A stretch of DNA of 64,000 bases from Escherichia coli (GCF_048403405.1 NZ_CP183131.1), one strand, 5' to 3'. Shown: positions 1 through 63,265, counted from the stretch's first letter. A program made the numbers and translations. The notes: generated by a model from the sequence alone, not told the origin.

Positions 1-1655
1 TCGCTTCGTTCACAGAGGTCAATCACTGAGCGACATGCCGGGGCGCTTTGAGGCTGCCCGTCAGTCACTACGATCAACATTTTTCGCTCTTCACGGGTCT
101 TGGTGAGTTCAAAAGCTGCATACCACATAGCTTCCGCCATAGGCGTACCGCCAGTTGCTTTGAACCCAAACCGACCGGCCCGATTCTGAACCGTATCTCC
201 ATGCTTCACGACACTGAACACTGGCTGGTTCCGGTTGCCACCAAAAAAGGTGACTGCCGGGTTTACGCCGGGTATTGCTTCCAGAGCCATCGAAATAGCC
301 AAGGACGCTTCCCGCGCAATGTCTTGACGCTCCTTTCCATTGGCGGCCTTGTAGGCCATCGAGGAGCTCATATCAACCAGGATGTGAACCGCCGTATTAG
401 GGCGTTTCTTGGCTTCCGGCTTGAGGAATACGCGGGTATCACCCGTCACTACACGATGTAGTTTCCGAGCATCCACACGCTTCCCTGATCGTTGGTTACG
501 GTGAGCAACTCGCTGGCTGGCCTGGACCAATCCGTAGAGCTGCGTTCTTATCTTTGAAGTGGTGCTCTTCACATCCCCTACCAGGCTTTTGCCAACAGCA
601 GGGTTGTCCTGGGTGTTCACAGCAGAGCGAACAGTCATATAGCTACTGTCCCCCTTATCTTGAGCCACCCGGTTGAGCTCGGCTTTAAGTGCATCATGCG
701 CGTCACCACGCAAATCACCGGCACCGGCATTCAGAACCTGCTGGAGCATTTTGGCCGCGTCTTGTTTCGCCGCGTCAGAATTGCCACCAGCCTGGCTTTG
801 TCCTGCCTTGCTGCCACCATCAGTATCCGACTTGCCTTGGTCGCCCTGTCCTTTCGGATCAGATTTCCCGTTAGCATCGTCTTGCTTCTGGTCTTTACCT
901 TGCTGATCACCACCATTGGCATCAGGCCCTTGGTTTTGATCGTTACCACTTCCGCCCTGACTGTTCTGAGGTTGGTTGCCACCAGCATTCTGCTGGTTGT
1001 TACCATCCTGACCATTCAGGGGCTTTTGCTCTTCTTTCTCCTTTTCCTCCTCGATCATCTTGATGATTTGGTCGGCCAAGGATGTCACCTCTGCGGTTGA
1101 CTTAGTGTTCACAGCCTTACGCAGTAAAGCGTTCAGCCGAACAACAACACCCTGAGGGAACACGCGCTCGAATACGGGGGTAGCCGAATCGAGATAGGGT
1201 TGAAGGACGGATTGCCCTACAGCCTTGGTTTGCAACCAGTACAAACAAAACCCTGTCAGAATGGAGGCAGGGGCCTCTTTGTCTGTGACGTGCTCGTAAT
1301 GACCAGCTTGAGCCATATAGCGAGCAACCTCATTCAGGGTCTGCGACGTACCGGGGAAGAGTTCCATCATGGCCCGTTCTATGCGGCAGTCCTCCAAAAC
1401 GTTGGACAACTCAGCATGAAGACCTCTGCGGCGCTCAACACCAAAGTCCGTAAACCGGACATGGGCTGCTTCATGGGCCAAATACCCCCAGACAGCATCC
1501 ATGTGAGGATAGTCGTCGGGGATATTCGGAACCACGATGGTCTTACCATCGGTGTATGCGTCATCGTTACCGATGGCGACTTTGACACCGAGTTTTTCAC
1601 CATAGGCTGCGGCCACGATTGGTAGAGCGCTGTAAATGGTGCGTTTTTTGGACAT
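1..1655 (-). CDS. vWA-domain protein (CobT-like partner of the CobS-like ATPase); 3' end runs off the window start
   Basis: Open minus-strand frame from ATG ~1655 (AGGAG 7 nt upstream) to position 1; absent from ORF track because no stop lies in the window. Hand translation of several stretches gives a Q/G/N/D-rich linker, then MIDAS-like VHILVDMSSS and VVTDGQPD. Confidence 0.7.
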   Translation of the reverse strand, partial: MSKKRTIYSALPIVAAAYGEKLGVKVAIGNDDAYTDGKTIVVPNIPDDYPHMDAVWGYLAHEAAHVRFTDFGVERRRGLHAELSNVLEDCRIERAMMELFPGTSQTLNEVARYMAQAGHYEHVTDKEAPASILTGFCLYWLQTKAVGQSVLQPYLDSATPVFERVFPQGVVVRLNALLRKAVNTKSTAEVTSLADQIIKMIEEEKEKEEQKPLNGQDGNNQQNAGGNQPQNSQGGSGNDQNQGPDANGGDQQGKDQKQDDANGKSDPKGQGDQGKSDTDGGSKAGQSQAGGNSDAAKQDAAKMLQQVLNAGAGDLRGDAHDALKAELNRVAQDKGDSSYMTVRSAVNTQDNPAVGKSLVGDVKSTTSKIRTQLYGLVQASQRVAHRNQRSGKRVDARKLHRVVTGDTRVFLKPEAKKRPNTAVHILVDMSSSMAYKAANGKERQDIAREASLAISMALEAIPGVNPAVTFFGGNRNQPVFSVVKHGDTVQNRAGRFGFKATGGTPMAEAMWYAAFELTKTREERKMLIVVTDGQPQSAPACRSVIDLCERS

Positions 1656-1739
1656 ATCTTTTCTCCTGGTAGGGAAGGAGATAGTCCACCCCTGGAGGGA
1701 ATGGCTATCCCCTCCGGGTCGGTTTAGTTGAAGTGACTA

Positions 1740-3017
1740 TTAGAAGAAATAGTCGCCATCGTCGTCAGTTTTAGGCAGCTCCTGGTTGAGAGGCTCCTCT
1801 GTCGGCTCCTCTTGGACAGGCTCTTGCTCTACCGGAGTTTCCTCAGGCAAAACCGGCTCATCCTCAACATCAACGCGCTCTTCTCGAACCACATCACCGG
1901 CATTGGATTCATCTTCCGATTCACCCTCGCCTCGTTCTGCAAAACTCTTGAAGAAGTTGTCGATGTCTTCATCCAGGTCAACAGCGTTACCACCGCTGTT
2001 AGTCTGTTCTGATTGAACAGATTCAGTACCACCTACCTGTTGCTGCTTGGTTTCGCCACCCTCTGTTGCAGGGATAAGCTCACCGGCTTTATCGCTTTTC
2101 TGTTCGGCCTTTTCATCTTTAGAACGGTCCCCCATCTGGGCTCCCGAACCGCCAATGTCATTAGCCATGCCCTCTACAGTAATCGAGCCATTGGCATACT
2201 GCTCGATGCGGTCCCTCTCGCTCATGATCAGCACTGCGGCCACGACCTGATAAAAGAAAGGCGCAACGATGTTTCGGCCATCGGCATGTTGCTCGTATCC
2301 CCGGAGGGTTTGGTCGAGCAGCTTGACCAGAGGGTTAAAAGCGCTGTTCAGGAAGCTAAGCCCATCCACCTTGTCGCGGATGTTACGGAGTGTCTGCCGA
2401 GTAGTGACCGCACATTGGTCTCGACCGGCCAAACGTTCCATATAGAACTTATTCGCTTCCTGAACCACTTCGGAGATGAGATCGTCACCCAAGCGCTCAA
2501 CCTTGCGGTTAAGGCGTTTGGCGTTGGCCTCATCTTCGTTCACAGGCTGGATCATGAACACCTGGTACTCAAAGCCAATCCGCTCCTCGACCGTTTCCTT
2601 TGGAAGGGCTCCGGCACGGATAGCTCGTTCATACTCAGGGTTCTCCTGACACCATTCATCCACGGCTTTGTTGTAACCTTTGATGAAATCCTGTTTCAGT
2701 TGGTTAAACTGAAAGTTTATGTCATTCAGCTTGTTACAGATTTCATCGGTCTTGCTGACGGGTACGGCAAATCCGTTCATGAACGGCATACCGAATTTCA
2801 GCAGGAGGCGACGAGTTTCTGTTTTCAGGCGATGAAAGCCTTTCAGCTTAGCCGGATCACAGATCTTCTTACTTCCCAGTTGAGCTACTTTCTCAGGTGG
2901 AATTTCACCACCCTCGCCCAGCTTGAGATCAGATGCAGACAAACGGGTTTGTCCACTCCAGATGTCAAAGTCTACGTGGATAACACAGAGGCTTTGTAGA
3001 TGGTTCACTTTAGTCAT
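1740..3017 (-). CDS. hypothetical protein with acidic C-terminal region ending DDDGDYFF
   Basis: ORF-track frame 1740..3029 uses a TTG; first ATG at ~3017 has GGAG 7-8 nt upstream. No recognisable catalytic motif. Confidence 0.6.
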   Translation of the reverse strand: MTKVNHLQSLCVIHVDFDIWSGQTRLSASDLKLGEGGEIPPEKVAQLGSKKICDPAKLKGFHRLKTETRRLLLKFGMPFMNGFAVPVSKTDEICNKLNDINFQFNQLKQDFIKGYNKAVDEWCQENPEYERAIRAGALPKETVEERIGFEYQVFMIQPVNEDEANAKRLNRKVERLGDDLISEVVQEANKFYMERLAGRDQCAVTTRQTLRNIRDKVDGLSFLNSAFNPLVKLLDQTLRGYEQHADGRNIVAPFFYQVVAAVLIMSERDRIEQYANGSITVEGMANDIGGSGAQMGDRSKDEKAEQKSDKAGELIPATEGGETKQQQVGGTESVQSEQTNSGGNAVDLDEDIDNFFKSFAERGEGESEDESNAGDVVREERVDVEDEPVLPEETPVEQEPVQEEPTEEPLNQELPKTDDDGDYFF

Positions 3018-3039
3018 GATGCACTCCAAAAAGTTGGGG

Positions 3040-3159
3040 GCGCACCACGTCCCGAACCGGGCGGATGCGCCCGGTTGGGCTAGTAAATTAACGTTAATTT
3101 GCTGTTTGTTTTTGGCGACCAGCTATCGCACTTTTCGCTCTCCGAAGAGAACAAAATCT
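3040..3159. repeat. 120-bp direct repeat copy A (hairpin AACCGGGCG-N4-CGCCCGGTT plus palindrome AATTAACGTTAATT), ~25-35 nt upstream of the 1740..3017 gene start
   Basis: Matches 7875..7994 over the full 120 bp by eye. Confidence 0.85.
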
Positions 3160-3216
3160 TGCTTTCCGTTGGAGACTCCCAGAATCCCCAAGGGAAAGCG
3201 GGGGAAAATCCCCCAC

Positions 3217-4227
3217 TCACCAGTAGAACGTCTCTACTTCTTCCGGCAAATCATCAAGAGGAGCAAGCACGTCCTCATCAACAATGTACCGTGGCTTCAC
3301 AGAGCCAGTAACCGTTACACGGCACCGCTCTGATGACTTCTCTCTGTACTGGTCAACATCCTCAGGCTTCACGCCTGACGCCTTATCAGCCAACAGCTTT
3401 TTGTAGTCTACCCGGCCAGCCGCTTTGTATCTCGTTACCATCACACCGCAGTAGTCGGCATGGAAGTATTCCCCCATGAGGGACTTCATGGTGTCGAGAT
3501 GAGGCTTTTGCCTTTCTTGAAGCTCAGACAGTCGCTGTTTCAGCTCCTGAATCTCAGCATCATAGAGGCGGTATTCCTCAGCAGCAGCAATCCAACGGTT
3601 GACCTCTTCACCTTGCGGTATGTACAGGTCTCTCTCTGGATCTTTGTCGGGCTCCTTCTTGTCTACTACCTGTTGCCAGAACTTTTTAGCCTCGGCCAAG
3701 ATTTCTTGAATCATGGCTTCGTCTCGGAGTATTGGAAACTCCTGAATCTGACCTTCAAAGTAGAAGACTAACCAGCCTTGCTTGGCCCCCGTTACCAGGA
3801 GCTGGTGTTGCACCTGCGGGTAATAAAGCTGGTATGCCTTGCTGTTTGCTTTCTCAGCACAAACATCTTCCCAGACAGTCGCACTCGGGCTTTTCAGCTC
3901 GACGGGCTCCCCGTTATCTCTCAGGCCATCCAGGGAGGCCCTCATGAGCGGGTATTGAACCGATTCGACACAGGCGGGGAGCAGCATGTCATCATACTTC
4001 TCCTCGAAAGCGCGTCTTGCAGCATCTTCGTTTTCTATCCCCCGGCGAACCAGCGGATTAAGACTCAGATCGACTTCACGCGCATACCCAGTCTTCTCGG
4101 CCCACAGTCTCCATCGTGTTTTGTACGGAGACCGATTGAGCAGGATAGCGGCGTCAGTGGCTGTTACACCTTGACGCCGCCAATCAAGCCAATCTTCCTC
4201 TCGTTGCGATAGGTTGACTATTTTCAT
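3217..4227 (-). CDS. exo: lambda Exo / YqaJ-like 5'-3' exonuclease
   Basis: 336-aa product resembles lambda exonuclease family; GGAGAGAGG before ATG; sits directly downstream of bet. Confidence 0.8.
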   Translation of the reverse strand: MKIVNLSQREEDWLDWRRQGVTATDAAILLNRSPYKTRWRLWAEKTGYAREVDLSLNPLVRRGIENEDAARRAFEEKYDDMLLPACVESVQYPLMRASLDGLRDNGEPVELKSPSATVWEDVCAEKANSKAYQLYYPQVQHQLLVTGAKQGWLVFYFEGQIQEFPILRDEAMIQEILAEAKKFWQQVVDKKEPDKDPERDLYIPQGEEVNRWIAAAEEYRLYDAEIQELKQRLSELQERQKPHLDTMKSLMGEYFHADYCGVMVTRYKAAGRVDYKKLLADKASGVKPEDVDQYREKSSERCRVTVTGSVKPRYIVDEDVLAPLDDLPEEVETFYW

Positions 4228-4289
4228 GGACCTCTCTCCAATGGTTAGGAGGGAGATCTCCCCCAGCGGGGGAGTCCCCCCCGTTGGGG

Positions 4290-5279
4290 TTAGTAGTAAC
4301 TGCCTTCCGCGCCCTCCTCTTCTGTAACAGGGATCATGTCCTCGTCACTCAAAGGCGGCATTTCTTCGGCACCAGGTTCAGCATTTGCAGAACCACCAGC
4401 GGCGGACTCTTGCTCGTGCGCTTCCTGGTAGTCAGGTTTCGGAGGCTCCATTTGATCCATCTCCTTGTCACGAAGGAATTGAGTCGCATATTGCAGTTCC
4501 GAACCTTCATACCGTCCCTTCACATACTCATGCGCCGCAGACCATGCGTTTTCAGCAATGGCGCGATTTGCGAGTTTGGTTAGGATCGGGTCAAGCTCTT
4601 TGTGCTCAATAGCCAAAGGCTCTTGGCTTTGAACTTGAGATGGTGAAGGGAGATTGGCAATAGCCGGGTTAATGGCCGATGCCTGCTCCATTTCACGGAT
4701 GCGTTCAGCTTCATCCTGGTCATAAATACCAGAGAAACCAAATGCGACACGAGAACACTGGATCAGCGACTTGTGCCGGAGTTGACGCTTGGTGTGCGTT
4801 TGCCAGGGGCCATCAACAGTGTAAGCACCATTGCGACCTTGACCCTGAAACGGTTCACGGTACACCTCATCAATGAACTCCTTGATGCGGATAGGGCGAG
4901 ATCTGTCCTTACGGTAAATCACGCATTCAATCCACTCAGGGCAGTCAACTTTCGCCCCCTGCATTCTGACCATCTTGTCCGAATACACGAACTCGACGCC
5001 ATCATACTGGGGATGCTCGTTGATGATGCGGCTCCAACCATCAACACCTACTACCGGAATGATCCCATTTTGCTTGTCAGGAAACGCATAGATTTCCCGA
5101 GTGAAAGGGTTCAAACCGTACTGTTCAGCCACGATCAGGAGCGTCATCATCTGCTCATCGGTCGGGGCACTTCCATCTCGCTGCTTGAATGCGGTCGCCT
5201 TCAAAGTTTCATAGAACTTTCGGGTGTCCACGCCAAACCGGCTTGCGATACGGGTTACAAGAGATTTGTTATCAGACAT
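4290..5279 (-). CDS. bet: Bet / RecT-family single-strand annealing protein
   Basis: Strong similarity to lambda Bet (LIVAEQYGLNP, EIYAFPDKQNGIIPVVGVDGWSRIINE, RQLRHKSLIQCSRVAFGF). Start moved to internal ATG with GGAG RBS. Confidence 0.9.
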   Translation of the reverse strand: MSDNKSLVTRIASRFGVDTRKFYETLKATAFKQRDGSAPTDEQMMTLLIVAEQYGLNPFTREIYAFPDKQNGIIPVVGVDGWSRIINEHPQYDGVEFVYSDKMVRMQGAKVDCPEWIECVIYRKDRSRPIRIKEFIDEVYREPFQGQGRNGAYTVDGPWQTHTKRQLRHKSLIQCSRVAFGFSGIYDQDEAERIREMEQASAINPAIANLPSPSQVQSQEPLAIEHKELDPILTKLANRAIAENAWSAAHEYVKGRYEGSELQYATQFLRDKEMDQMEPPKPDYQEAHEQESAAGGSANAEPGAEEMPPLSDEDMIPVTEEEGAEGSYY

Positions 5280-5373
5280 GGTGTTTCTCCAATTCACGAA
5301 TGAACGGTTTGAGGACACCATGACCCCCTCGGGGCATGAGTGCCCCCGTGGGGTTTAGTAAGAGTTGGCGGTG

Positions 5374-5901
5374 TTACCCGCCAGCCAAGTGGTGCAGCCG
5401 CATGAACGGGATGTCATCATCCCAGCCATCAGGAGCGGGACCATAGCCTCCGCCCATACCACCTTGCGGTGCTGATTGCTGCACAGGAGCAGATTGCGTA
5501 CCGGCTCCTGTACGTTGCCCTTTTTGGGGCGCTGCACGTTGAGAGTTGTCCTGAGGTGCATTTCCACGACCACCAAGCATCTGCATTTCAACGCAGTGTA
5601 CTTCGGTGGTGTAGCGCTCGATTTGTTGGCTGTCAGTCCACTTCCGGGTGCGGTTGCTCCCTTCGAGATAGACTTGGGAGCCCTTTTTCAGGTACTCACC
5701 AGCGACTTCTGCCAAACGACCTTTAAGCACAATACGGTGCCACTCAGTATGCTCTCTTTGCTCGCCAGACTGCTTATCGCGCCACGTATCCGTTGTTGCA
5801 ACGTTGAAGTTGGCAACGGCAGTTCCGCTTGGCATGTAGCGAATTTCCGGGTCAGAACCGAGATTACCGACCAGAATTACTTTGTTGACGCCTTTAGACA
5901 T
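5374..5901 (-). CDS. ssb: single-stranded DNA-binding protein
   Basis: OB-fold N-terminus ([22 protein letters not shown]), glycine-rich linker, canonical C-terminal tip DDDIPF. Confidence 0.9.
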
Positions 5902-5964
5902 CATGACCTCCAAGTTATTTGGAGAGGGCCAACGCCCCTTTCGGGGAGCAAGCCCCCGTAAGGG

Positions 5965-6873
5965 TTAAAAAAAGTGATCCTCTTGTTCGGCGTCGATCTC
6001 TGCCAGGCGAATCAGCTCAGATACAAGGCCAAGCCTTTCTGCATCTGCTCTTACTTCGTCGTAGCTGAAACCAAACCGTTCAATGAGGGGTTTTAGTGAA
6101 TCAAAACGCTCGTAGTCGAAGGTATCACCCTGTTCATCACAGAATGCCACCAGCGGCTTCTCTACGTTTGAAAAGTCATCCGCGAAACGCTGTTGCAGGT
6201 AAACCAACATCAGCAGGGGTTTGTGACCATGTTCCGGGCGGAGTTCACCAGCGCCTTCCAGCGTAGCTGGATGGATAGTGTTTTCGCCTAGTCCAGTGCT
6301 AACCCCAAGCTCATAACCGCTGTCAGTACGCATCAGCACACTGGGTAGCAAGTCATTTGAGCCTTCGCTCCGAGCAACCTCAAAGCCGATTAAACCGGCT
6401 CCTTTGGCAAAAACCCCAGCAACAAAACCTTTGAAGAGGTTTATGTCACCTGGAGGTAACTCAGAGGGCGGAGATAACAGCCAGTTGAGAGATCCCAAGC
6501 TGGCTGTTTGTCCGGCTGAAACATTCCCCCCTTCCAGCACCGTCTGTGTCTCTGCGTTTACCAGCACCTCATCCAGAAAGGTGTACCCCTGGCTGAGAAA
6601 CTGTGACACATACTGGCTTTCTTTGTCCTTGTAGGACATTGGGATCGTGTCTGGGCCGTTAGCTTCAAAAGGTCCTTCGAGCTTTGTCTCAGACCAATTT
6701 TCAGCTTTCCCATCAGTGACGGTTCGGCGTAGCTCGACCATCGTGAATTGGCCTGGCTCCGAGGAGCTGGGCTCCCGGAGCAACTTGTAGCCAATGAAGA
6801 CTTCTATTGTGGTTTCGTCATTGCCCCACTCTTTAGCAGTGTAACGACGGCACAAACAGTCATTTTTCTTCAT
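5965..6873 (-). CDS. hypothetical protein, C-terminus EQEDHFF
   Basis: 302-aa ORF packed between cobS-like gene and ssb on the same strand. Confidence 0.55.
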   Translation of the reverse strand: MKKNDCLCRRYTAKEWGNDETTIEVFIGYKLLREPSSSEPGQFTMVELRRTVTDGKAENWSETKLEGPFEANGPDTIPMSYKDKESQYVSQFLSQGYTFLDEVLVNAETQTVLEGGNVSAGQTASLGSLNWLLSPPSELPPGDINLFKGFVAGVFAKGAGLIGFEVARSEGSNDLLPSVLMRTDSGYELGVSTGLGENTIHPATLEGAGELRPEHGHKPLLMLVYLQQRFADDFSNVEKPLVAFCDEQGDTFDYERFDSLKPLIERFGFSYDEVRADAERLGLVSELIRLAEIDAEQEDHFF

Positions 6874-6883
6874 GCGTCACCCC

Positions 6884-7852
6884 TTAGCGCCATTGGTCCC
6901 CGAACACATCCTTCGCAACACGCAGGATGGCTTCACGCTCCTCTTTGGCCGCACGGATAAGCAGAGCTTGATCCAGGGCGTATTCAAGAGCATTTGGGGC
7001 ACCACGGAACGCTAGAGACAGTTTCGCCCAACGCACCAACGTCCGAGTGGACATGGTGACGCTGATCTGACCATCTTCACCGTTTTCGCCAAGAAACAGT
7101 TTGCGGACCTGATTAGCAATCCGAACCATTCCCTTCCGCACATTTTCCGGAAGTTTCGGAGTAACACGGCCAAGAATGCTGAGTTCAGCTTCCTCATCCG
7201 CATACCCTACTTTGGTGAAACGATAGCGATCCATAGCTGCGAGGTTCTGCATCATCACCCCCTGGTACAAACCAGAAGCATCACCGGACCCCGTAGAGTT
7301 ACCAGTAACGACCACACGAAACATCGGGTGCGGCTTGATGATTTCCCCGCCATTCTGAGCGATCACAAGGGGACGCCCTTCAAGGACATCGTTGAGACCA
7401 GCCAGCTCGGCAGGGTCGGCCAAATCCACCTCGTTGATGAGGAGCAGATGACCTTCACGCATAGCGACTGCCAGAGGTCCATACATGAACTTCATGACAG
7501 GTGGTTGACCAGGCTTTTCCGCGACCAGAGCGTGATGTCCAATCAGATCTGTCAGCTCCATCCGCCCGTGGGCAGTGATTTGCTGAACAGGCCAGTTGAG
7601 ACGACCAGCGATCTCGGTGATACCTGAGGTTTTGCCAGACCCGGTAGGGCCGGTTACGAACAATGCGTCACCGCCAGGCTCTTTGAGATAGGCCAAGACC
7701 TCTCGCAGAAACTCTTTGCGGAAAACGTAGTTGGTATCAGTGGCAGGGATGAAAGGGTTTGAACCGTCAGCGTAGCCGATGGCCGTTACCTTCTCCGGAA
7801 TGCTGGGCATACCGAAAACCTTGCTTACTGAGAATTGAGAGTATTGAGACAT
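6884..7852 (-). CDS. CobS-like / MoxR-type AAA+ ATPase
   Basis: Walker A GPTGSGKTS; Walker B-like LLLINEVD; AGGAG 7 nt before ATG. Confidence 0.8.
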   Translation of the reverse strand: MSQYSQFSVSKVFGMPSIPEKVTAIGYADGSNPFIPATDTNYVFRKEFLREVLAYLKEPGGDALFVTGPTGSGKTSGITEIAGRLNWPVQQITAHGRMELTDLIGHHALVAEKPGQPPVMKFMYGPLAVAMREGHLLLINEVDLADPAELAGLNDVLEGRPLVIAQNGGEIIKPHPMFRVVVTGNSTGSGDASGLYQGVMMQNLAAMDRYRFTKVGYADEEAELSILGRVTPKLPENVRKGMVRIANQVRKLFLGENGEDGQISVTMSTRTLVRWAKLSLAFRGAPNALEYALDQALLIRAAKEEREAILRVAKDVFGDQWR

Positions 7853-7874
7853 AGGTGCGCTCCTATTGTGACAG

Positions 7875-7994
7875 GCGCACCACGTCCCGAACCGGGCGGA
7901 TGCGCCCGGTTGGGCTAGTAAATTAACGTTAATTTGCTGTTTGTTTTTGGCGACCAGCTATCGCACTTTTCGCTCTCCGAAGAGAACAAAATCT
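7875..7994. repeat. 120-bp direct repeat copy B, immediately upstream of the cobS-like gene start
   Basis: Identical by eye to 3040..3159. Confidence 0.85.
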
Positions 7995-8071
7995 GCTTAC
8001 TGATGGTATTCACCATGAGTAAGAAGACTTTTAAGGAGCGAGGAGAGTAGCCTCTCCTGGAGGCCACTCCC

Positions 8072-8323
8072 TCAATGGACGAACATCACCACATCGTCGT
8101 TTTGACCAATGACCCCGGTTTCTTTGGCCCACTTCACTGCTTCACTGTGCGCCTGGTAGGAGCTGGAATACAGTTTCGGATCAAATTTCACCTCGCGTCC
8201 ATCAGCCAGATAGATGATGCCTGCGTGATCGTCGTAAACATGAAGATTCTGTTGCATTCGACATTCCCCCTGTAGCTTGTCGTCAAAGCCAACTGACACC
8301 AGAAGACTTTGAGGACAAGCCAC
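8072..8323 (-). CDS. hypothetical small protein (83 aa)
   Basis: ORF only; position between repeat copy B and upstream small genes. Confidence 0.4.
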   Translation of the reverse strand: MACPQSLLVSVGFDDKLQGECRMQQNLHVYDDHAGIIYLADGREVKFDPKLYSSSYQAHSEAVKWAKETGVIGQNDDVVMFVH

Positions 8324-8370
8324 AGAGGCTTGACCAGAAAGAGAGGGGTTGCCCCCTCCCTTTGCGTTGA

Positions 8371-8466
8371 CTATCAGCAGTAACCGAACGATTCAGCGAT
8401 TCTCACGAAAGGACGAGAGATTGCCCAACCAGTAGGGATACACAAAGCGATGATAGCGATTTCCAT
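8371..8466 (-). CDS. possible small hydrophobic peptide (31 aa, MEIAIIALCIPTGW...)
   Basis: ATG preceded by AGGAGCAACATC, nearly identical to the initiation region of the 8561..8881 gene, and placed right after a terminator hairpin; below ORF-track size cutoff. Confidence 0.3.
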
Positions 8467-8487
8467 GATGTTGCTCCTAAGCAAAAA

Positions 8488-8520
8488 GGGGCAACATCCC
8501 CGTCGGGGTATGGTTGCCCC
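8488..8520 (-). terminator. rho-independent terminator-like hairpin (GGGGCAAC...GTTGCCCC + U-run on minus strand)
   Basis: Inverted repeat followed by T-run on the coding (minus) strand, just downstream of the 8561 stop. Confidence 0.5.
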
Positions 8521-8560
8521 GATGGGTTTGAAAGTGTCGAAGATTACTCAGCGACAGTTA

Positions 8561-8881
8561 TTACCAAACAAGTTCCTTGCCCTTACGAAGGTAAGTCGGG
8601 ATTTCGAGATAATCCCAGTCAGGTTCTTGTTTAGCGACTTCTTGAACTTGAGTTACCTCAGGTTCAACGACTGCTTTGGCTTGTTCAGCCTTGGCAGCAC
8701 GTTCTTTGATGACGGCCTGTACAGACCGCATTGCAGGAACTGCGAATTTGTTCCAAAGGAACAAACCGATACGCTGGAACACTTTAGCGAGAACGATGAA
8801 GGAAAAAGCAAATGCCTTCGCGCCTACGTACAGTGCGCCCAGAGATGCAAGCAGAACTACAATGAAAGTGATGATGTGCAT
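8561..8881 (-). CDS. small membrane protein whose C-terminus (EPDWDYLEIPTYLRKGKELVW) mimics the conserved FtsZ C-terminal peptide
   Basis: N-terminal hydrophobic segment IITFIVVLLASLGALYVGAKAFAFSFIVLA; AGGAG 7 nt before ATG; tail matches E. coli FtsZ ...EPDYLDIPAFLRKQAD. Confidence 0.65.
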   Translation of the reverse strand: MHIITFIVVLLASLGALYVGAKAFAFSFIVLAKVFQRIGLFLWNKFAVPAMRSVQAVIKERAAKAEQAKAVVEPEVTQVQEVAKQEPDWDYLEIPTYLRKGKELVW

Positions 8882-9078
8882 GGTGTTGCTCCTATGTAAA
8901 AAAACAGGGGCAACACCCGAAAACCGGGAGAAGCCCCCGGCTTGGGGTTAAGTAATGCCATACGGCATAAGACTAGATGCTGTTTGTTTTCGGAGACCAG
9001 CTATCTCACCTATAGCCGCAGAGCGACTAAGATGATTCAAATATAGCTCACCTTTGCTAAACAGAAAACGCTGTAACT

Positions 9079-9093
9079 GTCCATTTTGGGCAC
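9079..9093. promoter_or_regulatory. GCCCAWTTTGGRCA-type box (candidate AcaCD/SetCD-like activator site)
   Basis: GTCCATTTTGGGCAC preceded by CTGT; one of five similar boxes. Confidence 0.45.
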
Positions 9094-9174
9094 TTCGAGA
9101 GGTCAGGTTACAGATTGACCGCATTTATCCTTTCCAGTGCGTTTATCTGTACCTCAAATTTAGGAGTATCTCTA

Positions 9175-9816
9175 ATGGCAGAAGCACAAGTAGCACTGGA
9201 CACAAACAACGACCGCAGCAACCACTACTCTCGCCCTGTTTTCAAGCAAGTTCTGAAAGTAAACAGCCTCCAAGCTCAGCGCGTCATGGAACGCAGCTTT
9301 GAGCGAGTTTCCAACTCCCTGTTCTCCATCGACGTGATCCTTCGCATCATCGGTGAGCAGGACGAAATCGACCAGGTTGAAACCGTCATCCTGGAACACA
9401 TTTCCAAGGTCTCCGAAGACCTGGACAAAGCTACCGCCCAGCTCAACAAGCTGATGGAAGACAACGGCATCGACATGATGCCCGGCTACACCAACCCGAA
9501 TGAATACACCATCGAGATCAACTCTCCTCAGGTTGCTCAGTTTGCACACCTGATCCGCAAACTGGATACCCTGATGGGGATCGTTGACACTCTCTGGCTG
9601 AACACCGTACTGACCAGCAAGCAGCGCACCGACGCCACTTACCAATGGCAGCAACGCCTCATCAAGCTGGCCGGTCGAATCATCGGCATCGAGAAACGGG
9701 CTCGCATTTCCGCCCACAGCAAAGGCAAAGAAGGTGAAGTGGCCGAAGCCGCTCCGGAATCTGCAACCGGCGACAAGGAAATCGCAGACGAAGCCGAGAA
9801 AACAAAAGCAGCATAA
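9175..9816 (+). CDS. hypothetical protein (213 aa)
   Basis: AGGAG 8 nt before ATG at 9175 (ORF-track frame 9115..9816); followed by a terminator. Confidence 0.6.
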   Translation: MAEAQVALDTNNDRSNHYSRPVFKQVLKVNSLQAQRVMERSFERVSNSLFSIDVILRIIGEQDEIDQVETVILEHISKVSEDLDKATAQLNKLMEDNGIDMMPGYTNPNEYTIEINSPQVAQFAHLIRKLDTLMGIVDTLWLNTVLTSKQRTDATYQWQQRLIKLAGRIIGIEKRARISAHSKGKEGEVAEAAPESATGDKEIADEAEKTKAA

Positions 9817-9832
9817 CCCAGCCCAAACCTTT

Positions 9833-9858
9833 GCCCCTCGCCCGAGGGGCTTTTTTTT
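9833..9858 (+). terminator. rho-independent terminator (GCCCCTCG/CGAGGGGC + T8)
   Basis: GC hairpin followed by TTTTTTTT. Confidence 0.75.
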
Positions 9859-9938
9859 GTCTTTTATGGTTGCATTTTTTGATGCTGTGATATTATCGAA
9901 GTAAATCAGATTCAACTCAGGTAAGAACGGAGAACAAC

Positions 9939-10799
9939 ATGAAAAAGGCTTTAATCACCACCGTGGCTCTGGCTGTAGCAGCTCTATCTGGCTGTGCATC
10001 CACCAGCAGTTACGAACCCACAGCGTACAAAACCAATCACAGTCGCGCTTACAACATCGCGGAGGCCGGTGGCCTGGTAACAGGCATCCAAGACGCTTCT
10101 GTTCCGCGTGACAAGCTGGAGCGTCTGACCGACACCAAAACGTTTGGGGCAGCCTACGTGCTGTCTGGCTACATGTCCCCTCAGCTCGGAATGACCGACT
10201 GGCAAGGTGGCTTGGTCAACCTTGCGAACTGGGCTATCGGCCCCAAACAGCATGGCGCTCGCAATAGCTTGATCGCTTGGATGCCTGCTAACGAAGCAGT
10301 TTCACCGGCAGACGCTCAGGCCAAATTTCTTTCACATGTGAAAGTTTCCATTGAGTCAGCGCTGACTGATTTGGGTGCCAATTTCACGCTTCTGTATGAC
10401 AAAGATGGTCGCCTAACCTATCAGTTCTACAAGAATGAATGGGGTTGCCCGACGTGGGTGAACGGACAAAGTAAGGTAGCTGACATGTGTTCCGTTAAGG
10501 TGAAAATCGTGGAGCCTCGCCTAGGGTCAGCTCCTAATTTTGTCTCTGGCGTTCAAGGTACAGCGTATGCCTTCACATCAGGCCATGAGACCGCATACAA
10601 CTTTGTGAATGTCGGTAATGGGGCAGCAAGCCATGCTCCTCAGCAAGCGATCTACGCAGCTATTAGCAAACAGCTACCAGCTTGGGCCTACCTCTACCTT
10701 GCTCCAAAATCGGTTGAGCTGGATAATGGCGAAAAAGTTGCTTTCCCTTACCTTCTTGATCAGGGAAAAGCAGAGTTATTTGTTTACCCAGAAGCGTAA
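9939..10799 (+). CDS. lipoprotein (lipobox LSGC), function unknown
   Basis: MKKALITTVALAVAALSGCAS signal peptide. Confidence 0.65.
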   Translation: MKKALITTVALAVAALSGCASTSSYEPTAYKTNHSRAYNIAEAGGLVTGIQDASVPRDKLERLTDTKTFGAAYVLSGYMSPQLGMTDWQGGLVNLANWAIGPKQHGARNSLIAWMPANEAVSPADAQAKFLSHVKVSIESALTDLGANFTLLYDKDGRLTYQFYKNEWGCPTWVNGQSKVADMCSVKVKIVEPRLGSAPNFVSGVQGTAYAFTSGHETAYNFVNVGNGAASHAPQQAIYAAISKQLPAWAYLYLAPKSVELDNGEKVAFPYLLDQGKAELFVYPEA

Positions 10800-10811
10800 T
10801 CAATCTACATG

Positions 10812-10838
10812 AGAAAGGGGCCGAAAGGCCCCTTTTTT
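10812..10838. terminator. bidirectional terminator hairpin (GGGGCCGAAAGGCCCC) between lipoprotein gene and traN
   Basis: A-run / hairpin / T-run shared by convergent genes. Confidence 0.7.
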
Positions 10839-13648
10839 TATCCACCACCACCAGTTGGCGCGCCTGTTTGAGGGTCTATGCTGTTTGTCGCCTCTTTTCG
10901 CTTCGCGTCAATATCAATCCCTTCCAACCGCTCCAACGCCCTTTCCTGAGCATTCTTCCGCGTCCCGTCAATATTGAAGTCATTCCCTGCTCCAGTCAGC
11001 GAGTCGAGATTTATTGAGGCCGGATCAGGGAATTTACCGTTCTGCTGTAATATCCCAAGCCACTCATCCAAATTAATTTTGCTCCAATCAATTTCGGCAA
11101 TTTTATCTAGTGGAATCCCTTCACACTGAGGATTTTTGGGGTCTCCAAAGTTCTGCCCCAATTGAGGGCGAACCTGTTCTTGTATAATACGAGAGAGCGG
11201 AGAATTGAAGCAGCAATACGCTTCTCTTTTTTCAATACAAGCGCCCAACACCTTAGATTTACAATAAGAGCCTACATAGGTGCAATTCTTGAGCGCTCTT
11301 TTGGCGTTCATAGTGAACTCTTCTTCCTCGCACTTATAAATCATCTGGATCATCACCATCGCAACGACATAGACGGTATATATCGTCATGGCAGTGCTAA
11401 GCCATGTTGTCGCAGTCTCCATCATTGCTTCGGCAGCTTGTTCAGATGCTGCGGCAGCCGCCTGCTCTGTTGCTGCATCTTGGCCTGCTGATTTCATGAC
11501 ATCCATCATCACTTCTTTGACTTGCTCTTTGAGCTGGTCAATGAGTTGATCAACAAACTGCTCTACAGGCTGGAAGAACGAATCAACAGCACCTGAAACG
11601 TTCTCTATATAACTTGTGAACGGTTTTGTGACTTCTGTCCACCCTTGAAGGGCAGGTTCCCTAAGTACCTGATAAGCACCTTTAAGCGCATTACCATCAG
11701 TCAGCCCCATCACTGCGCCATCGAGCTTTGGAACGGCCATTATTAGGTTCAGATAATCGGCAAGAGATATATTGGTTGGCTTTTCACAGCAATCAGAAAC
11801 TCCCCCAACAGCTATCTTGCATTCGCCAGCTTCCCCTGCAAAAGCAGAGCAAATAACGTTTTCATCCCCGGTAGGATTGTCATCCCCATCTTGGCCTGTG
11901 CAGCTCATATCCTGCGTCATGAATTGGGCTGCATTGAGCAACGCAGTAGCGCGAGCAAAATCAGTGCTTTGTGTTTTGGTCAAATCAAGGCAGTCATCTC
12001 CCATGCAGCGTATAGGCCCACCGCACTGGTACTCAGTTTCCTTTTCCAAGGTCGGAACAGAAACATCTGTACCACAGTCATAAGTATCCTCGTGGACGTA
12101 GCACGTACCAGAACTTCCCTGAGCACCATCAACACATTTGGAACTGATGAAGCCGCACTGAGGGTTTTCTTCATATTTCTGACAGCTATCGAGATTCCCG
12201 CCCGTGTTTACCGGACAGTGCGTTTCACCTTGAGGGTCTGTCCAGCAGTCCATTTGCCCCTTATAAAAGTCATAGTCAGCTTTAACTCGAACCTTTTTGC
12301 ATAGTTTTGGAATACCAGGCAAAGGTGACGGCTTGAGTTGAGATTCGCAAACTTTGATCCCATTGATGACTGTGCAGCCCGTAGCATCAGTCGGGTCATC
12401 TATACATGTGATCTCGCCTTCCGCAAAACCATCTACAACCCCTTTGGCTGAATCCATGCAGCTCTGTGGAGCCCACTCATCCTTGGTAATGGCTTTTGAT
12501 GGGTCATAGCGTAGCTTTATGCGGCCAAAACCCTCACCTGCGCCAGTTACTGAAACGCGGATCTTAAACGTAACAACATCACCATCTTTCACATTCTTGA
12601 AATAGGGAGTGACATCAATATTAGGGTTTCGCTCCCAACTTGTTGACAATTCACATCGGCCAGCCGTTTCTGGAGGGAAATTGCCGTCAGGGCCGGACCA
12701 TACTTTAGTTTCCTGACCTGATTTACCAACCCAAACTTGCATGTAGTCATCCCACTTGGCGTACTCAAGAGTTGCAGACACTATGGCGTCTGGATTACTG
12801 ACTTGGACCCGCGTGTATTCCTCATAAATCGAACAGTTGCCACTCCAGTAGTCGTTACCAACTCGGCCAATCCACAACTCAGTACAGCCTTCTCCACAAG
12901 ATTTGAGGTTATATGGACCATCATAGTGCTTCACCACAGAGGCATCGTAGTCATGGACAACCTCACAGTCCGCGCTTTGATCTACAACACGCTGACACCG
13001 TTCATACTCTGGAATGTGGGCGTTGATAGTATTCTGATTGATGGTTGTTTCGGCAGAACAATCCCCAAAGCCACCTGCGATGAGGTCCATATCCTCATAG
13101 GTCTTTTTGCTTAGATTTAGTACAGGGTCATTACTGAAATCAGGGCGTGATCGATTAGAGGCATCGAGAAGAACCTTGTATGCCGCACCAGAGATTGATG
13201 GATTAGCACTATTGGCATCACTCCACAGCGACCCTTTTGCATTATTCCCCACGCTGTCCATGTCATCGCCAGAGTCGTAAATGCCTTGCAGACCGCCCAC
13301 ATCAGGTTTATTGGCATCAGGGAAGTAATAACTATCAGGTTTATTGTTGGTCCCGCTCGTTCCGGGGAATAGATCATTGACATTAATCTGACTCCCCCCG
13401 TTCATTTGGAATTGACCGTCTTTCAACGTCGGCATAGAGATTGTGCCATCTTGCACAGTCCCCGAGCTCGACTTGAATGAGTTTGAGAGGTTTTGTCCGA
13501 AAGCCTGGGCCTCTTTACCCACCGCTGTGATGTCCTGGTCTTGGCTACCGTTAGCGTAGGAATGTATCGGCAGCGCAGACATGGTTACTGTCAACAGCGA
13601 GGCCACAGCTTTCATAAAGTAATTATGACTTCGCATTGTGTTCTCCAT
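10838..13648 (-). CDS. traN: TraN-like mating-pair stabilisation outer-membrane protein
   Basis: 936 aa, signal peptide, very cysteine-rich C-terminal half; order traW-traU-traN. Confidence 0.8.
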   Translation of the reverse strand: MENTMRSHNYFMKAVASLLTVTMSALPIHSYANGSQDQDITAVGKEAQAFGQNLSNSFKSSSGTVQDGTISMPTLKDGQFQMNGGSQINVNDLFPGTSGTNNKPDSYYFPDANKPDVGGLQGIYDSGDDMDSVGNNAKGSLWSDANSANPSISGAAYKVLLDASNRSRPDFSNDPVLNLSKKTYEDMDLIAGGFGDCSAETTINQNTINAHIPEYERCQRVVDQSADCEVVHDYDASVVKHYDGPYNLKSCGEGCTELWIGRVGNDYWSGNCSIYEEYTRVQVSNPDAIVSATLEYAKWDDYMQVWVGKSGQETKVWSGPDGNFPPETAGRCELSTSWERNPNIDVTPYFKNVKDGDVVTFKIRVSVTGAGEGFGRIKLRYDPSKAITKDEWAPQSCMDSAKGVVDGFAEGEITCIDDPTDATGCTVINGIKVCESQLKPSPLPGIPKLCKKVRVKADYDFYKGQMDCWTDPQGETHCPVNTGGNLDSCQKYEENPQCGFISSKCVDGAQGSSGTCYVHEDTYDCGTDVSVPTLEKETEYQCGGPIRCMGDDCLDLTKTQSTDFARATALLNAAQFMTQDMSCTGQDGDDNPTGDENVICSAFAGEAGECKIAVGGVSDCCEKPTNISLADYLNLIMAVPKLDGAVMGLTDGNALKGAYQVLREPALQGWTEVTKPFTSYIENVSGAVDSFFQPVEQFVDQLIDQLKEQVKEVMMDVMKSAGQDAATEQAAAAASEQAAEAMMETATTWLSTAMTIYTVYVVAMVMIQMIYKCEEEEFTMNAKRALKNCTYVGSYCKSKVLGACIEKREAYCCFNSPLSRIIQEQVRPQLGQNFGDPKNPQCEGIPLDKIAEIDWSKINLDEWLGILQQNGKFPDPASINLDSLTGAGNDFNIDGTRKNAQERALERLEGIDIDAKRKEATNSIDPQTGAPTGGGG

Positions 13649-19958: not shown

Positions 19959-20662
19959 TCAACACTCTCCAACCATGATTTCAGGTTCTTCGGACGTCCT
20001 TTGCTGACACGACCATCCGGAGCAACCACGAACGGAACGCCCTCAATCCCAATGAAATGAGCTGTCAGCAGCGTTTGATCGTATTGGCCGGGGTCGCAGG
20101 TTTCTTTTGAAGGAAGGGAACCCAAGGTGTTGTTCATCAGCGCATCGAGCGCGTGGGTTTTGTCTTTCGCGCAGTACAAGTTCTTTGCCAAGCGGTTGGA
20201 CTCAGCACCCAGAGCAGGAATCACGATAAATTTAAAGGTGTAATCATCCACCAGCGATTTGGCATCACCCATGAGCTGATGGCAAACCGCGCATCTAGGA
20301 TCGACAAAGACCACCACCTCTTTGTCACCACGCCCCATCGAAACGGTGTTCAGCGTGTCCACATCCATGCCCATGCTCTTGAAGTGGATACGCTCCGCTA
20401 CATCCCTCATTTGGGACATCGTGTTGAGGGGCTTCTTGCTCCACAGGTCGTAGATTTGTCCTGAAATAACAAATCGCCCGTTTTCAGAGAGGAACATGAT
20501 CTGCCCATCACTTTGGACGGCTCGAACCCCTTTGATGGGTAGCTCTACGATGTCCTCTATCTTCGCCGCTCTGGGATCGGTGATTTCCAATTTCGATGAC
20601 GCATGAGCCGTGCCGGTAATAATCCCGAACACCATCAGCGCCCCGAGTAATTTTGTCCGCAT
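19955..20662 (-). CDS. dsbC: DsbC-like thiol:disulfide interchange protein
   Basis: Signal peptide; thioredoxin CxxC (DPRCAVCHQL); stop overlaps traC start. Confidence 0.8.
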   Translation of the reverse strand: MRTKLLGALMVFGIITGTAHASSKLEITDPRAAKIEDIVELPIKGVRAVQSDGQIMFLSENGRFVISGQIYDLWSKKPLNTMSQMRDVAERIHFKSMGMDVDTLNTVSMGRGDKEVVVFVDPRCAVCHQLMGDAKSLVDDYTFKFIVIPALGAESNRLAKNLYCAKDKTHALDALMNNTLGSLPSKETCDPGQYDQTLLTAHFIGIEGVPFVVAPDGRVSKGRPKNLKSWLESVE

Positions 20663-56255: not shown

Positions 56256-57453
<1,198 letters not shown>

Positions 57454-63120: not shown

Positions 63121-63262
63121 AACACTATACGGGGTCTGACGCTCAGTGGAACGAAAACTCACGTTAAGGGATTTTGGTCATGAGATTATCAAAAAGGATC
63201 TTCACCTAGATCCTTTTAAATTAAAAATGAAGTTTTAAATCAATCTAAAGTATATATGAGTA
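63121..63262 (-). mobile_element. second Tn2/Tn3 end fragment (IRR + ~100 bp), direct repeat of 56256..56396, cut by IS26
   Basis: Same IR and adjacent sequence as downstream of blaTEM; diverges into IS26 IRL. Confidence 0.8.
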
Positions 63263-63265
63263 AAC

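Follow-up and report, generated by a model that had tools for sequence, protein, structure and literature searches.

The DNA analysed here is a stretch of 64,000 nucleotides from Escherichia coli (GCF_048403405.1, NZ_CP183131.1), in the following called the window, and our subject is a pair of perfect intergenic repeats that it carries, which we describe together with their relatives on other conjugative elements. With an identity of 99.6-100%, the region corresponds to the conserved backbone shared by IncC (A/C2) conjugative plasmids, and it is matched in 838 plasmid records, 733 of them at 99% identity or above. On the minus strand, the gene order is traN, vcrx086, vcrx087, vcrx088, repeat copy B, an AAA-ATPase gene (vcrx089), vcrx090, ssb, bet, exo, repeat copy A, a DUF3150 gene (vcrx094) and a gene for a VWA protein (vcrx095). 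As these genes lie on the minus strand, the repeat has to be read as its reverse complement. A repeat search found positions 3039-3159 and 7874-7994 to be identical over 121 nt (100% identity; start-to-start spacing 4835). A first-pass annotation of the sequence had already recognized this identity, but with a length of 120 bp, one base too short; it had also correctly placed the repeats upstream of two start codons, but at ~25-35 nt, whereas the distance from the 3′ end of the repeat to the ATG (at 3017 and 7852, respectively) is 21 nt in both copies. Its degenerate partial copy at ~8972-9010 is likewise present as a third, diverged copy (c1), which matches over 39 nt with 85% identity at 8978-9016 and is extended to 8974-9033 by a covariance model. 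The features discussed below are, in window coordinates:

6884-7852, minus strand: AAA-ATPase gene (vcrx089 homologue), the first after copy B; from open reading frame (ORF) and homology
1740-3017, minus strand: DUF3150 gene (vcrx094 homologue), the first after copy A; from ORF and homology
3039-3159, minus strand: repeat copy A (c3), a leader element in the exo/DUF3150 (vcrx093-vcrx094) intergenic region; covariance-model match at 3096-3157, 83.9 bits
7874-7994, minus strand: repeat copy B (c2), a leader element in the vcrx088/AAA-ATPase (vcrx089) intergenic region; covariance-model match at 7931-7992
8974-9033, minus strand: diverged copy c1 at the 5′ extremity of the AcaCD-dependent Pvcrx087 transcript; covariance-model match, 49 bits
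3161-3214, minus strand: upstream module of intergenic region A, a hairpin and helix P0, from the fold
3133-3156, minus strand: hairpin P1 of copy A, UUUUGUUCUC-UUCG-GAGAGCGAAA; in copy B at 7968-7991
3114-3130, minus strand: hairpin P2 of copy A, with the loop UAGCUGG at 3119-3125; in copy B at 7949-7965
3101-3113, minus strand: A-rich linker CAAAAACAAA and CAGC (3101-3104), the proposed 3′ strand of a pseudoknot; in copy B at 7936-7948
3085-3100, minus strand: perfect 16-bp palindrome AAATTAACGTTAATTT; in copy B at 7920-7935
3051-3079, minus strand: GC-rich hairpin P3, CCCAACCGGGCG-CAUC-CGCCCGGUUCGGG; in copy B at 7886-7914
3015-3046, minus strand: hairpin P4, from the folds, which sequesters the Shine-Dalgarno sequence and abuts the ATG at 3017-3015; in copy B at 7850-7881

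The GC hairpin and the palindrome named in the first-pass annotation thus correspond to P3, whose arms lie within 3051-3079 and 7886-7914, and to AAATTAACGTTAATTT, which occurs at just two sites in the window, 3085-3100 and 7920-7935 (~0.16 chance matches are expected even with three mismatches). Only the 5′ arm of P4 (3039-3046) falls within the repeat of copy A. The upstream module of region A consists of a terminator-like GGGGG-AUUUU-CCCCC hairpin (3200-3214), followed by P0, in which GCUUUCC (3193-3199) pairs with GGAAAGC (3161-3167). Copy B is a mosaic: its downstream part equals copy A (121 exact nt), while its upstream part resembles another copy of the same plasmid backbone, c8 (112 exact nt, with similarity reaching to about 8030).

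Across the family, the coding strand reads, from 5′ to 3′, a long P1, 2-3 nt, a P2 of 4-5 bp with a UAGCUGG loop, the A-rich linker CAAAAACAAA and CAGC(A), with AAAYAAACAGC as the nearly invariant tail. The earlier suggestion of a structured 5′ leader is borne out at several levels. Compared with shuffled sequences, the intergenic RNAs fold with z-scores of -6.7, -7.9 and -5.2, and both helices covary strongly. In 134 covariance-model hits, representing 115 distinct sequences, 89.7% of the cells are paired, as against 59% in shuffles, of which none in 500 reached the observed value, and 39-50% in slid controls; all 15 pairs have changes on both sides, with 462 double-change cells overall. In P1, both sides change in 10 of 10 pairs across the 115 distinct sequences, and 90% of the cells are paired. 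The inner four pairs of P2 are paired in at least 99% of cells with 30, 65, 9 and 43 double changes, and the P2 covariation agrees in an alignment made with MAFFT only, while the P2 loop is UAGCUGG in 131 of the 134 hits. Because G.U pairs are frequent on the sense strand, where G.T exceeds A.C, the fold belongs to this strand, i.e. to RNA.

The loop and the tail suggest a further interaction. The GCUG of the P2 loop can pair with the CAGC of the tail in 99.8% of cells, with one compensatory change, six G.U-compatible changes and one mismatch; since both partners are nearly invariant and the variation between them is minimal, we regard the resulting H-type pseudoknot as probable rather than demonstrated. 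Further downstream, 59 of 113 distinct copies have an 'ACCC' motif within ~40 nt of the tail; where folds were examined, it opens the GC-rich 'ACCC...GGG' hairpin P3. In these folds, P3 is succeeded by P4, whose pairing takes in the Shine-Dalgarno sequence and reaches as far as the start codon, an architecture that recurs across the family; the median distance from the tail to the start codon is 74 nt. A predicted RNA structure that occludes vcrx089's ribosome-binding site was also noted by Roy et al. (PMC7498323). The element shows all the generic marks of cis-regulatory structured RNAs, namely a conserved secondary structure with compensatory changes, a fixed orientation to genes and a recurrent position in 5′ leaders.

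No Rfam family accounts for the element. Against Rfam 15, including PreQ1, radC, JUMPstart and STAXI, the window has no match at the gathering threshold, with only chance-level hits (E > 1) in 2900-3300, and the regions searched in IncC, IncA and pAhD4 gave nothing relevant, nor did the beta- and alphaproteobacterial loci described below; literature searches with sequence strings found nothing relevant on the motif. We thus rejected a known ribozyme or riboswitch. The loop region resembles the GGTAGC of the RfaH ops/JUMPstart element, a candidate that we also rejected, as the base before TAGC covaries within a stem and Rfam JUMPstart does not match. A trans-acting antisense small RNA was dismissed for want of a complementary sequence elsewhere on the plasmid, and a single-stranded DNA promoter or priming site is disfavoured by the start of the motif at transcript position +1, its fixed distance from start codons, its confinement to a single 24-kb region and the sense-strand G.U pairs. 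Three related GC-rich 'UAACCC...GGGG' hairpins resembling P3 occur on the minus strand at 4267-4292, 5942-5967 and 8925-8950; two of these sites lie between genes (bet-exo and vcrx090-ssb) and one in the leader of vcrx087. A relationship with the translational attenuator described upstream of bet in the element SXT is possible, yet none of the three lies in the ssb-bet gap.

Local BLAST and covariance-model searches of the complete IncC plasmid pAR060302 revealed eight copies, all on the same (coding) strand and within 24 kb, and none in the tra operons or elsewhere on the plasmid. Three of the eight lie within the window and five beyond its left end; the two exact copies are not the only ones. 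Between 5 and 12 copies of the motif are also carried by pAhD4-1 and by one plasmid each of IncA, Edwardsiella and Vibrio owensii. Scanning one genome per species with the pattern TAGCTGG-N7-AAAYAAACAG, we found multi-copy contigs in Betaproteobacteria (Rhodocyclaceae, Sulfuritalea, Azonexaceae, Sterolibacteriaceae, Lautropia), Alphaproteobacteria (Rhodospirillaceae, Pseudovibrio) and further Gammaproteobacteria (Vibrio, Photorhabdus, Providencia, Paraglaciecola, Chromatiales). About 70 matches to this pattern are expected by chance; among the 164 distinct exact matches, 107 are flanked by at least four consecutive stem pairs and 42 by no stem. Viral contigs yielded chance-like matches only, single and stem-less. 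A phage origin was rejected on these grounds, the first match in a phage collection being a Salmonella genomic island that bears IncC backbone. At one betaproteobacterial locus, the motif stands beside ssb, a RecE-like exonuclease gene, recT and a PRTRC cassette, so that the association there is with a type of genes and not with IncC sequences as such. The family is thus found in conjugative elements of alpha-, beta- and gammaproteobacteria, and it appears to be a new, widespread and uncatalogued structured RNA. Small ORFs beside the element, sought as candidates for a partner protein, match no family.

The copies occupy two kinds of position. Promoter-proximal copies begin within a few nucleotides of the transcription start site (+1 to +3). 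On other elements, the motif stands behind FlhDC-type activator boxes (GCCCAAAAAGGGC-like or GCACAAAAGTGCAC-like) with a -10 element, or behind a TTGACA-17-TATCGT promoter, and a weak IncC copy at pAR060302 103,547 lies 16-18 nt after the inferred vcrx114 start site. Internal copies, which include both 121-bp repeats, are preceded by a GC hairpin and a (G)CUUUCC that pairs with GGAAAG just 5′ of P1 to form P0; of 54 internal copies carrying GGAAAG, 40 have recognisable P0 arms, with covarying extensions. In copy c5 (pAR060302, about 96,590-96,610) and in the Edwardsiella copy c3 (L008, about 19,960-19,990), a variable P0 insert contains the core of the IncC centromere parS, TTTCACATGTGAAA, which would embed a ParB-binding site in a transcribed leader. 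We also noted a small ORF, MNKFQDFKLVYRQGGRRLERVF..., just after c8 (pAR060302, about 106,795-106,940), which is missing from the PLSDB gene table, itself incomplete, and is conserved behind a leader copy in a contig of a Rhodospirillaceae metagenome-assembled genome (L044, ORF 5514-5717).

Published data on the IncC plasmid pVCR94 place these positions on a transcript. By chromatin immunoprecipitation with exonuclease digestion and mapping of start sites, Carraro et al. (2014; PMC4207636) located binding peaks of the activator AcaCD at the divergent vcrx086/087 promoter and at vcrx098, and none at either repeat-bearing intergenic region; every gene from vcrx088 to vcrx096 rises from ~0-23 expression units without AcaCD to ~900-11,000 with it. 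The vcrx087 start site that they report (65081-65083 in pVCR94; PMC4207636) maps via gene offsets to 9032-9034 of the window. Copy c1 begins at this site, and in the fold, P1 starts at nucleotide 1. With cDNA primed in vcrx094, reverse transcription PCR (RT-PCR) detected vcrx087, vcrx089 and bet, which places them on one mRNA (PMC7498323). Published work thus shows that both 121-bp copies lie inside a single polycistronic mRNA starting at Pvcrx087. In either repeat, we found no sigma-70 promoter (-35 and -10 hexamers spaced by 16-18 nt) on either strand, and a consensus scan found no intrinsic terminator (a GC-rich hairpin directly followed by a T-run), P3 being followed by ACGUGG. The AcaCD box GCCCNDWWWGGGC, which is bound at -64 to -37 relative to the start site, is absent from both repeats; c1 lies downstream of the vcrx087 box. 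The proposal that the repeats head two sub-operons with a shared promoter is contradicted by the single mRNA, the missing AcaCD peak and the missing sigma-70 promoter. Operon limits called by Rockhopper (vcrx089-exo and vcrx094-095; Carraro et al., 2014; PMC4207636) do coincide exactly with the identical repeats, but these breaks, at 7853-8071 and 3018-3216, are probably an artefact of short reads mapping to two places, not a stop of transcription. Upstream of the vcrx098 homologue (pAR060302, 92,083-92,335), the AcaCD box of Pvcrx098 is directly 5′ of a terminator-like hairpin, P0 and copy c4, so that Pvcrx098 transcripts would begin at that hairpin; this promoter gave no clear signal in rapid amplification of 5′ cDNA ends despite very strong AcaCD-dependent expression (PMC4207636).

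The repeat itself has been described before. Roy et al. (2020; NAR 48:8815; PMC7498323) reported that the vcrx087-to-toprim region of pVCR94 holds a family of intergenic repeats, rptI, whose longest copy measures 155 bp and whose other copies are partial; they found the family to be conserved in IncC and showed experimentally that it is the substrate of Bet/Exo-dependent deletions of 9-24 kb. The setting agrees with ours: the eight copies lie between the vcrx087 5′ untranslated region and the toprim gene, and copy B with its c8-like upstream part spans ~157 nt (7874-8030). The spacings that we predict for pairs of copies in pVCR94 compare with the deletions reported there (PMC7498323) as follows:

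c2-c8: predicted spacing 23,724; reported deletion 23,702
c2-c6: predicted spacing 14,092; reported deletion 14,076
c2-c4: predicted spacing 9,271; reported deletion 9,268
c1-c4: predicted spacing 10,315; reported deletion 10,310

From position, length and deletion sizes, the 121-bp repeats are most likely rptI, although the a/b labels of two reported deletion rows do not fit the mapping of copies to rptI. The repeat and its capacity for deletion are therefore already published, and what we add is its membership in a family of structured leaders: Roy et al. described rptI as a DNA recombination substrate confined to IncC ('not SXT/R391'), without the covarying RNA motif, the reach into alpha- and betaproteobacteria or the position at a transcription start. 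They also found 32 bp of rptIb to be 100% identical in SGI1 (PMC7498323), and 32 nt is the exact length of the P2 and tail core. The primary transcript of the SGI1 RNA S022/sgm-sRNA yields an abundant 70-80-nt 5′ fragment ending at a GC-rich inverted repeat 66 nt from the start site (PMC9299015), a layout that matches that of the leader and makes it a candidate link. In the window, positions 3840-3868, inside exo, and 8978-9006, in c1, further form a weak direct repeat of 29 nt with a spacing of exactly 5138 bp; the size of the rptIIa-rptIIb deletion is also 5138 (Roy et al., 2020; PMC7498323), and the two may be the same pair, or the agreement a coincidence.

The perfect identity of copies A and B reflects gene conversion within the IncA/IncC lineage, a possibility that the first-pass annotation had considered. 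Between c2 and c3, IncC shares at most 121 exact nt in a row and IncA 122 nt with the same boundaries, but the longest such run is only 23-30 nt in pAhD4-1 and the plasmids of Edwardsiella and V. owensii. Each of the two pairs has lineage-specific differences of its own; those common to the two IncA paralogues are a changed P1 apex and two 1-nt indels. In the three other plasmids, it is the c3 position that carries the sequence most like the IncA/IncC pair. As judged from these comparisons, c2 was replaced by a c3-type copy in the common ancestor of IncA and IncC; such conversion, a form of concerted evolution specific to this lineage, went on after the two had split.

The two copies also mediate the loss of what lies between them, an outcome that had been foreseen and is published for the repeat family (PMC7498323). 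When we searched with a synthetic junction of the vcrx088 end, one repeat and the DUF3150 start, the exact c2-c3 deletion junction was found as one contiguous match with 99.8% identity in 4 of 862 plasmid records, all of them Salmonella IncC plasmids; the annotation of one shows the genes for the AAA-ATPase, vcrx090, ssb, bet and exo to be precisely gone. Two further candidates for deletion variants, H40 and H113, were rejected, as they contain lone c8 copies only.

Taken together, we lean towards reading the two repeats as recently homogenised copies of a transcribed modular leader ('rptI') that exerts cis-acting post-transcriptional control ahead of gene groups in the AcaCD-activated region. 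Its function would most likely be the control of translation or stability, with antitermination as the main rival. The leader RNA would act in cis, with P1 shielding the start of each message as a structured 5′ end, which internal copies would gain once the single-stranded AAG/AUUUU stretch just upstream had been cleaved. Together with its A-rich linker, the P2 pseudoknot could serve as a docking site for a conserved host factor, for which the 30S subunit, with protein S1, is the leading candidate (a standby site), and docking would set the use of the sequestered ribosome-binding site downstream, and hence the translation and stability of the next cistron. Such post-transcriptional control in cis fits the homologous SXT operon, for which a translational attenuator upstream of bet has been reported (PMC4542580).

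A number of points weigh against this interpretation. The control of translation or stability is deduced from the anatomy of the leader, and folding of the sense strand by itself cannot separate RNA from sense-strand single-stranded DNA. The pseudoknot depends on one compensatory change, with loop and tail almost invariant; this invariance is partly built in, as both are fixed in the pattern by which the non-plasmid loci were found, and alignment A3 was fitted to the model's own structure. The invariant parts offer no alternative pairing with the Shine-Dalgarno hairpin that we could find, so that the model gives no account of how the ribosome-binding site would be opened, and the conserved palindrome AAATTAACGTTAATTT has no place in it. 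Finally, the terminator-like hairpins before internal copies suit antitermination at least as well.

In that alternative, which we consider unlikely but the most serious competitor, the leader, made directly after the activator-dependent promoter, would act as a processive antitermination RNA, like HK022 put, Bacillus subtilis EAR or Tn916 canT, and bind its own RNA polymerase to make it terminator-resistant; internal copies after terminator-like hairpins would reload the polymerase along the 25-kb unit, and polymerases from stray promoters would be stopped. This would explain why promoter-proximal copies start at +1 to +3 and why internal ones are preceded by a GC hairpin with UUUCC or UUUUCC, and a loop and tail that stay invariant in distant hosts point to a universal target, for instance RNA polymerase. 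Published transcript levels remain in the same range (~900-11,000 units) across both intergenic regions (PMC4207636), and RNA antiterminators are known from Gram-positive conjugative elements (PMC11658703; PMC8955417). On the other hand, the long AcaCD-driven tra operons of the same plasmid do without the element, the U-tracts are short, and the consensus scan calls no terminator in the two repeat-bearing intergenic regions. Antitermination also has no need for a constant placement ~74 nt before a sequestered ribosome-binding site, and 8-12 copies per element are unlike any known antiterminator RNA.

An operator that senses a protein or ligand is a still less probable explanation. Here, the P2 pseudoknot would be a small-molecule aptamer or the site for a protein of the element, such as the plasmid's single-stranded DNA-binding protein (SSB), and would co-regulate all DNA-metabolism and anti-defence cassettes; the pseudoknot in T4 gene 32 mRNA offers a parallel. 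This role would suit the compact H-type pseudoknot and its A-rich linker, whose layout is like that of preQ1-I and luteovirus pseudoknots; it would also fit the structured expression platform downstream and the fact that the IncC plasmid and the examined beta- and alphaproteobacterial carrier loci encode SSB and single-strand-annealing recombinases. No Rfam riboswitch matches, however, and the junction loop, a single G, leaves no obvious ligand pocket; neither an alternative pairing with the downstream hairpins nor a family for the small neighbouring proteins came to light.

We give little credence to the idea that the repeats work as DNA, i.e. that they are homology tracts, perhaps with a Chi-like pause palindrome, for break repair by Bet/Exo single-strand annealing, as Roy et al. 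proposed, with the RNA structure being incidental. Bet/Exo-dependent deletions between rptI copies are an experimental fact (PMC7498323), the four predicted copy spacings match reported deletion sizes and natural deletion variants exist. Yet homology tracts require no compensatory changes, no fixed strand, no start at transcript position +1 and no constant distance from start codons; copies in relatives keep the structure while sharing only 23-30 exact nt, and the family also stands beside unrelated RecE/RecT-type modules. Roles at the DNA level do exist as consequences, yet they cannot account for covariation, strand bias and positioning.

The least supported reading, and a very improbable one, is an internal promoter and operator, with an unrecognised sigma factor or activator and with the palindrome as the operator of a plasmid repressor, dividing the region into two sub-operons: the Rockhopper breaks exactly at the repeats and a perfect 16-bp palindrome, typical of dimeric DNA-binding proteins and conserved in several relatives, would be in its favour, but RT-PCR joins the genes across both repeats (PMC7498323), expression is near zero without AcaCD although no AcaCD peak lies at the repeats (PMC4207636), there is no sigma-70 consensus, the breaks can be an artefact of two-place read mapping, as we infer, and the palindrome is not the IncC parS core TTTCACATGTGAAA. 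As a parS centromere, it was rejected because this core, with its AAAC/GTTT flanks (PMC10954446), differs from AAATTAACGTTAATTT; the palindrome is kept in the IncA, V. owensii plasmid and Photorhabdus copies and decayed in other relatives.

The genes behind the leaders lend these questions some weight, as IncC plasmids are major carriers of multidrug resistance. The AAA-ATPase gene at 6884-7852, the adjoining gene at 5965-6873, ssb, bet and exo constitute the published 'hde' operon, in which vcrx089-090 counter type I restriction, while ssb-bet-exo repair CRISPR cuts by annealing short direct repeats (PMC7498323); together, they let the plasmid survive both defences in new hosts. Should their expression be under the leader's control, one conserved RNA target would be common to many conjugative elements in three proteobacterial classes, and a largely unannotated part of plasmid biology would gain a new RNA family with a testable mechanism. 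The identical copies, in turn, allow the precise loss of the whole anti-defence and recombination operon, which has already occurred in sequenced Salmonella plasmids, and probably also distort operon calls through read-mapping artefacts. The window holds another exact direct repeat, of 135 nt (56257-56391 and 63131-63265), which looks like resistance-island debris with no relation to the leader family: we take it to be a Tn2/Tn3 (pBR322-type) stretch adjoining blaTEM, and it neighbours a 286-residue ORF (56404-57264) and, beside its second copy, an IS26-like sequence.

Among known systems, the intercistronic RNase III processing sites of phage T7 and other intercistronic stabiliser hairpins are similar in that structured elements lie between the cistrons of a long mobile-genome transcript and could leave hairpin-protected ends. 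The leader, however, has no long perfect duplex of the kind usual at RNase III sites, and its invariant loop and tail are not explained in this way; its processing would be conceivable by analogy. The preQ1-I riboswitch and the luteovirus frameshift pseudoknots are compact H-type folds with A-rich linkers and thus comparable in architecture only: they share a stem of 4-5 bp, a 2-nt first loop, a second stem of 4 bp, a 1-nt junction and an A/C-rich third loop that could occupy the minor groove, but the leader has no PreQ1 match in Rfam and no ligand-binding junction loop, and is not in a coding frame. The tisB standby pseudoknot exemplifies standby-site or pseudoknot-assisted translation, and the leader resembles such standby and attenuator systems in having a single-stranded A-rich stretch and a pseudoknot 5′ of a tightly sequestered Shine-Dalgarno sequence. 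The SXT attenuator (PMC4542580) differs in its place, upstream of bet and not in the repeat-bearing intergenic regions, and ribosome loading by the leader motif may be envisaged by analogy.

The put, EAR and canT RNAs (PMC11658703), lastly, are likewise structured, lie just 3′ of a mobile-element promoter, precede long operons with hairpin or terminator-like elements and work in the sense orientation only. They have no sequence or Rfam similarity to the leader and occur once where the leader has 8-12 copies per element, and the leader is absent from tra operons and tightly coupled to a ribosome-binding-site hairpin. Tentatively, and as a possibility on which we would not yet rely, the family could be a new cis-acting RNA class of proteobacterial conjugative plasmids and integrative and conjugative elements, in which a 5′-terminal hairpin and a pseudoknot with the invariant UAGCUGG loop bring in either RNA polymerase or the 30S subunit as a universal host machine. 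Standing ahead of each cassette in the 'establishment/anti-defence' region, it would decide which genes of an incoming plasmid are expressed. If so, it would be either the Gram-negative counterpart of put/canT-type antitermination or a new ribosome-loading device.

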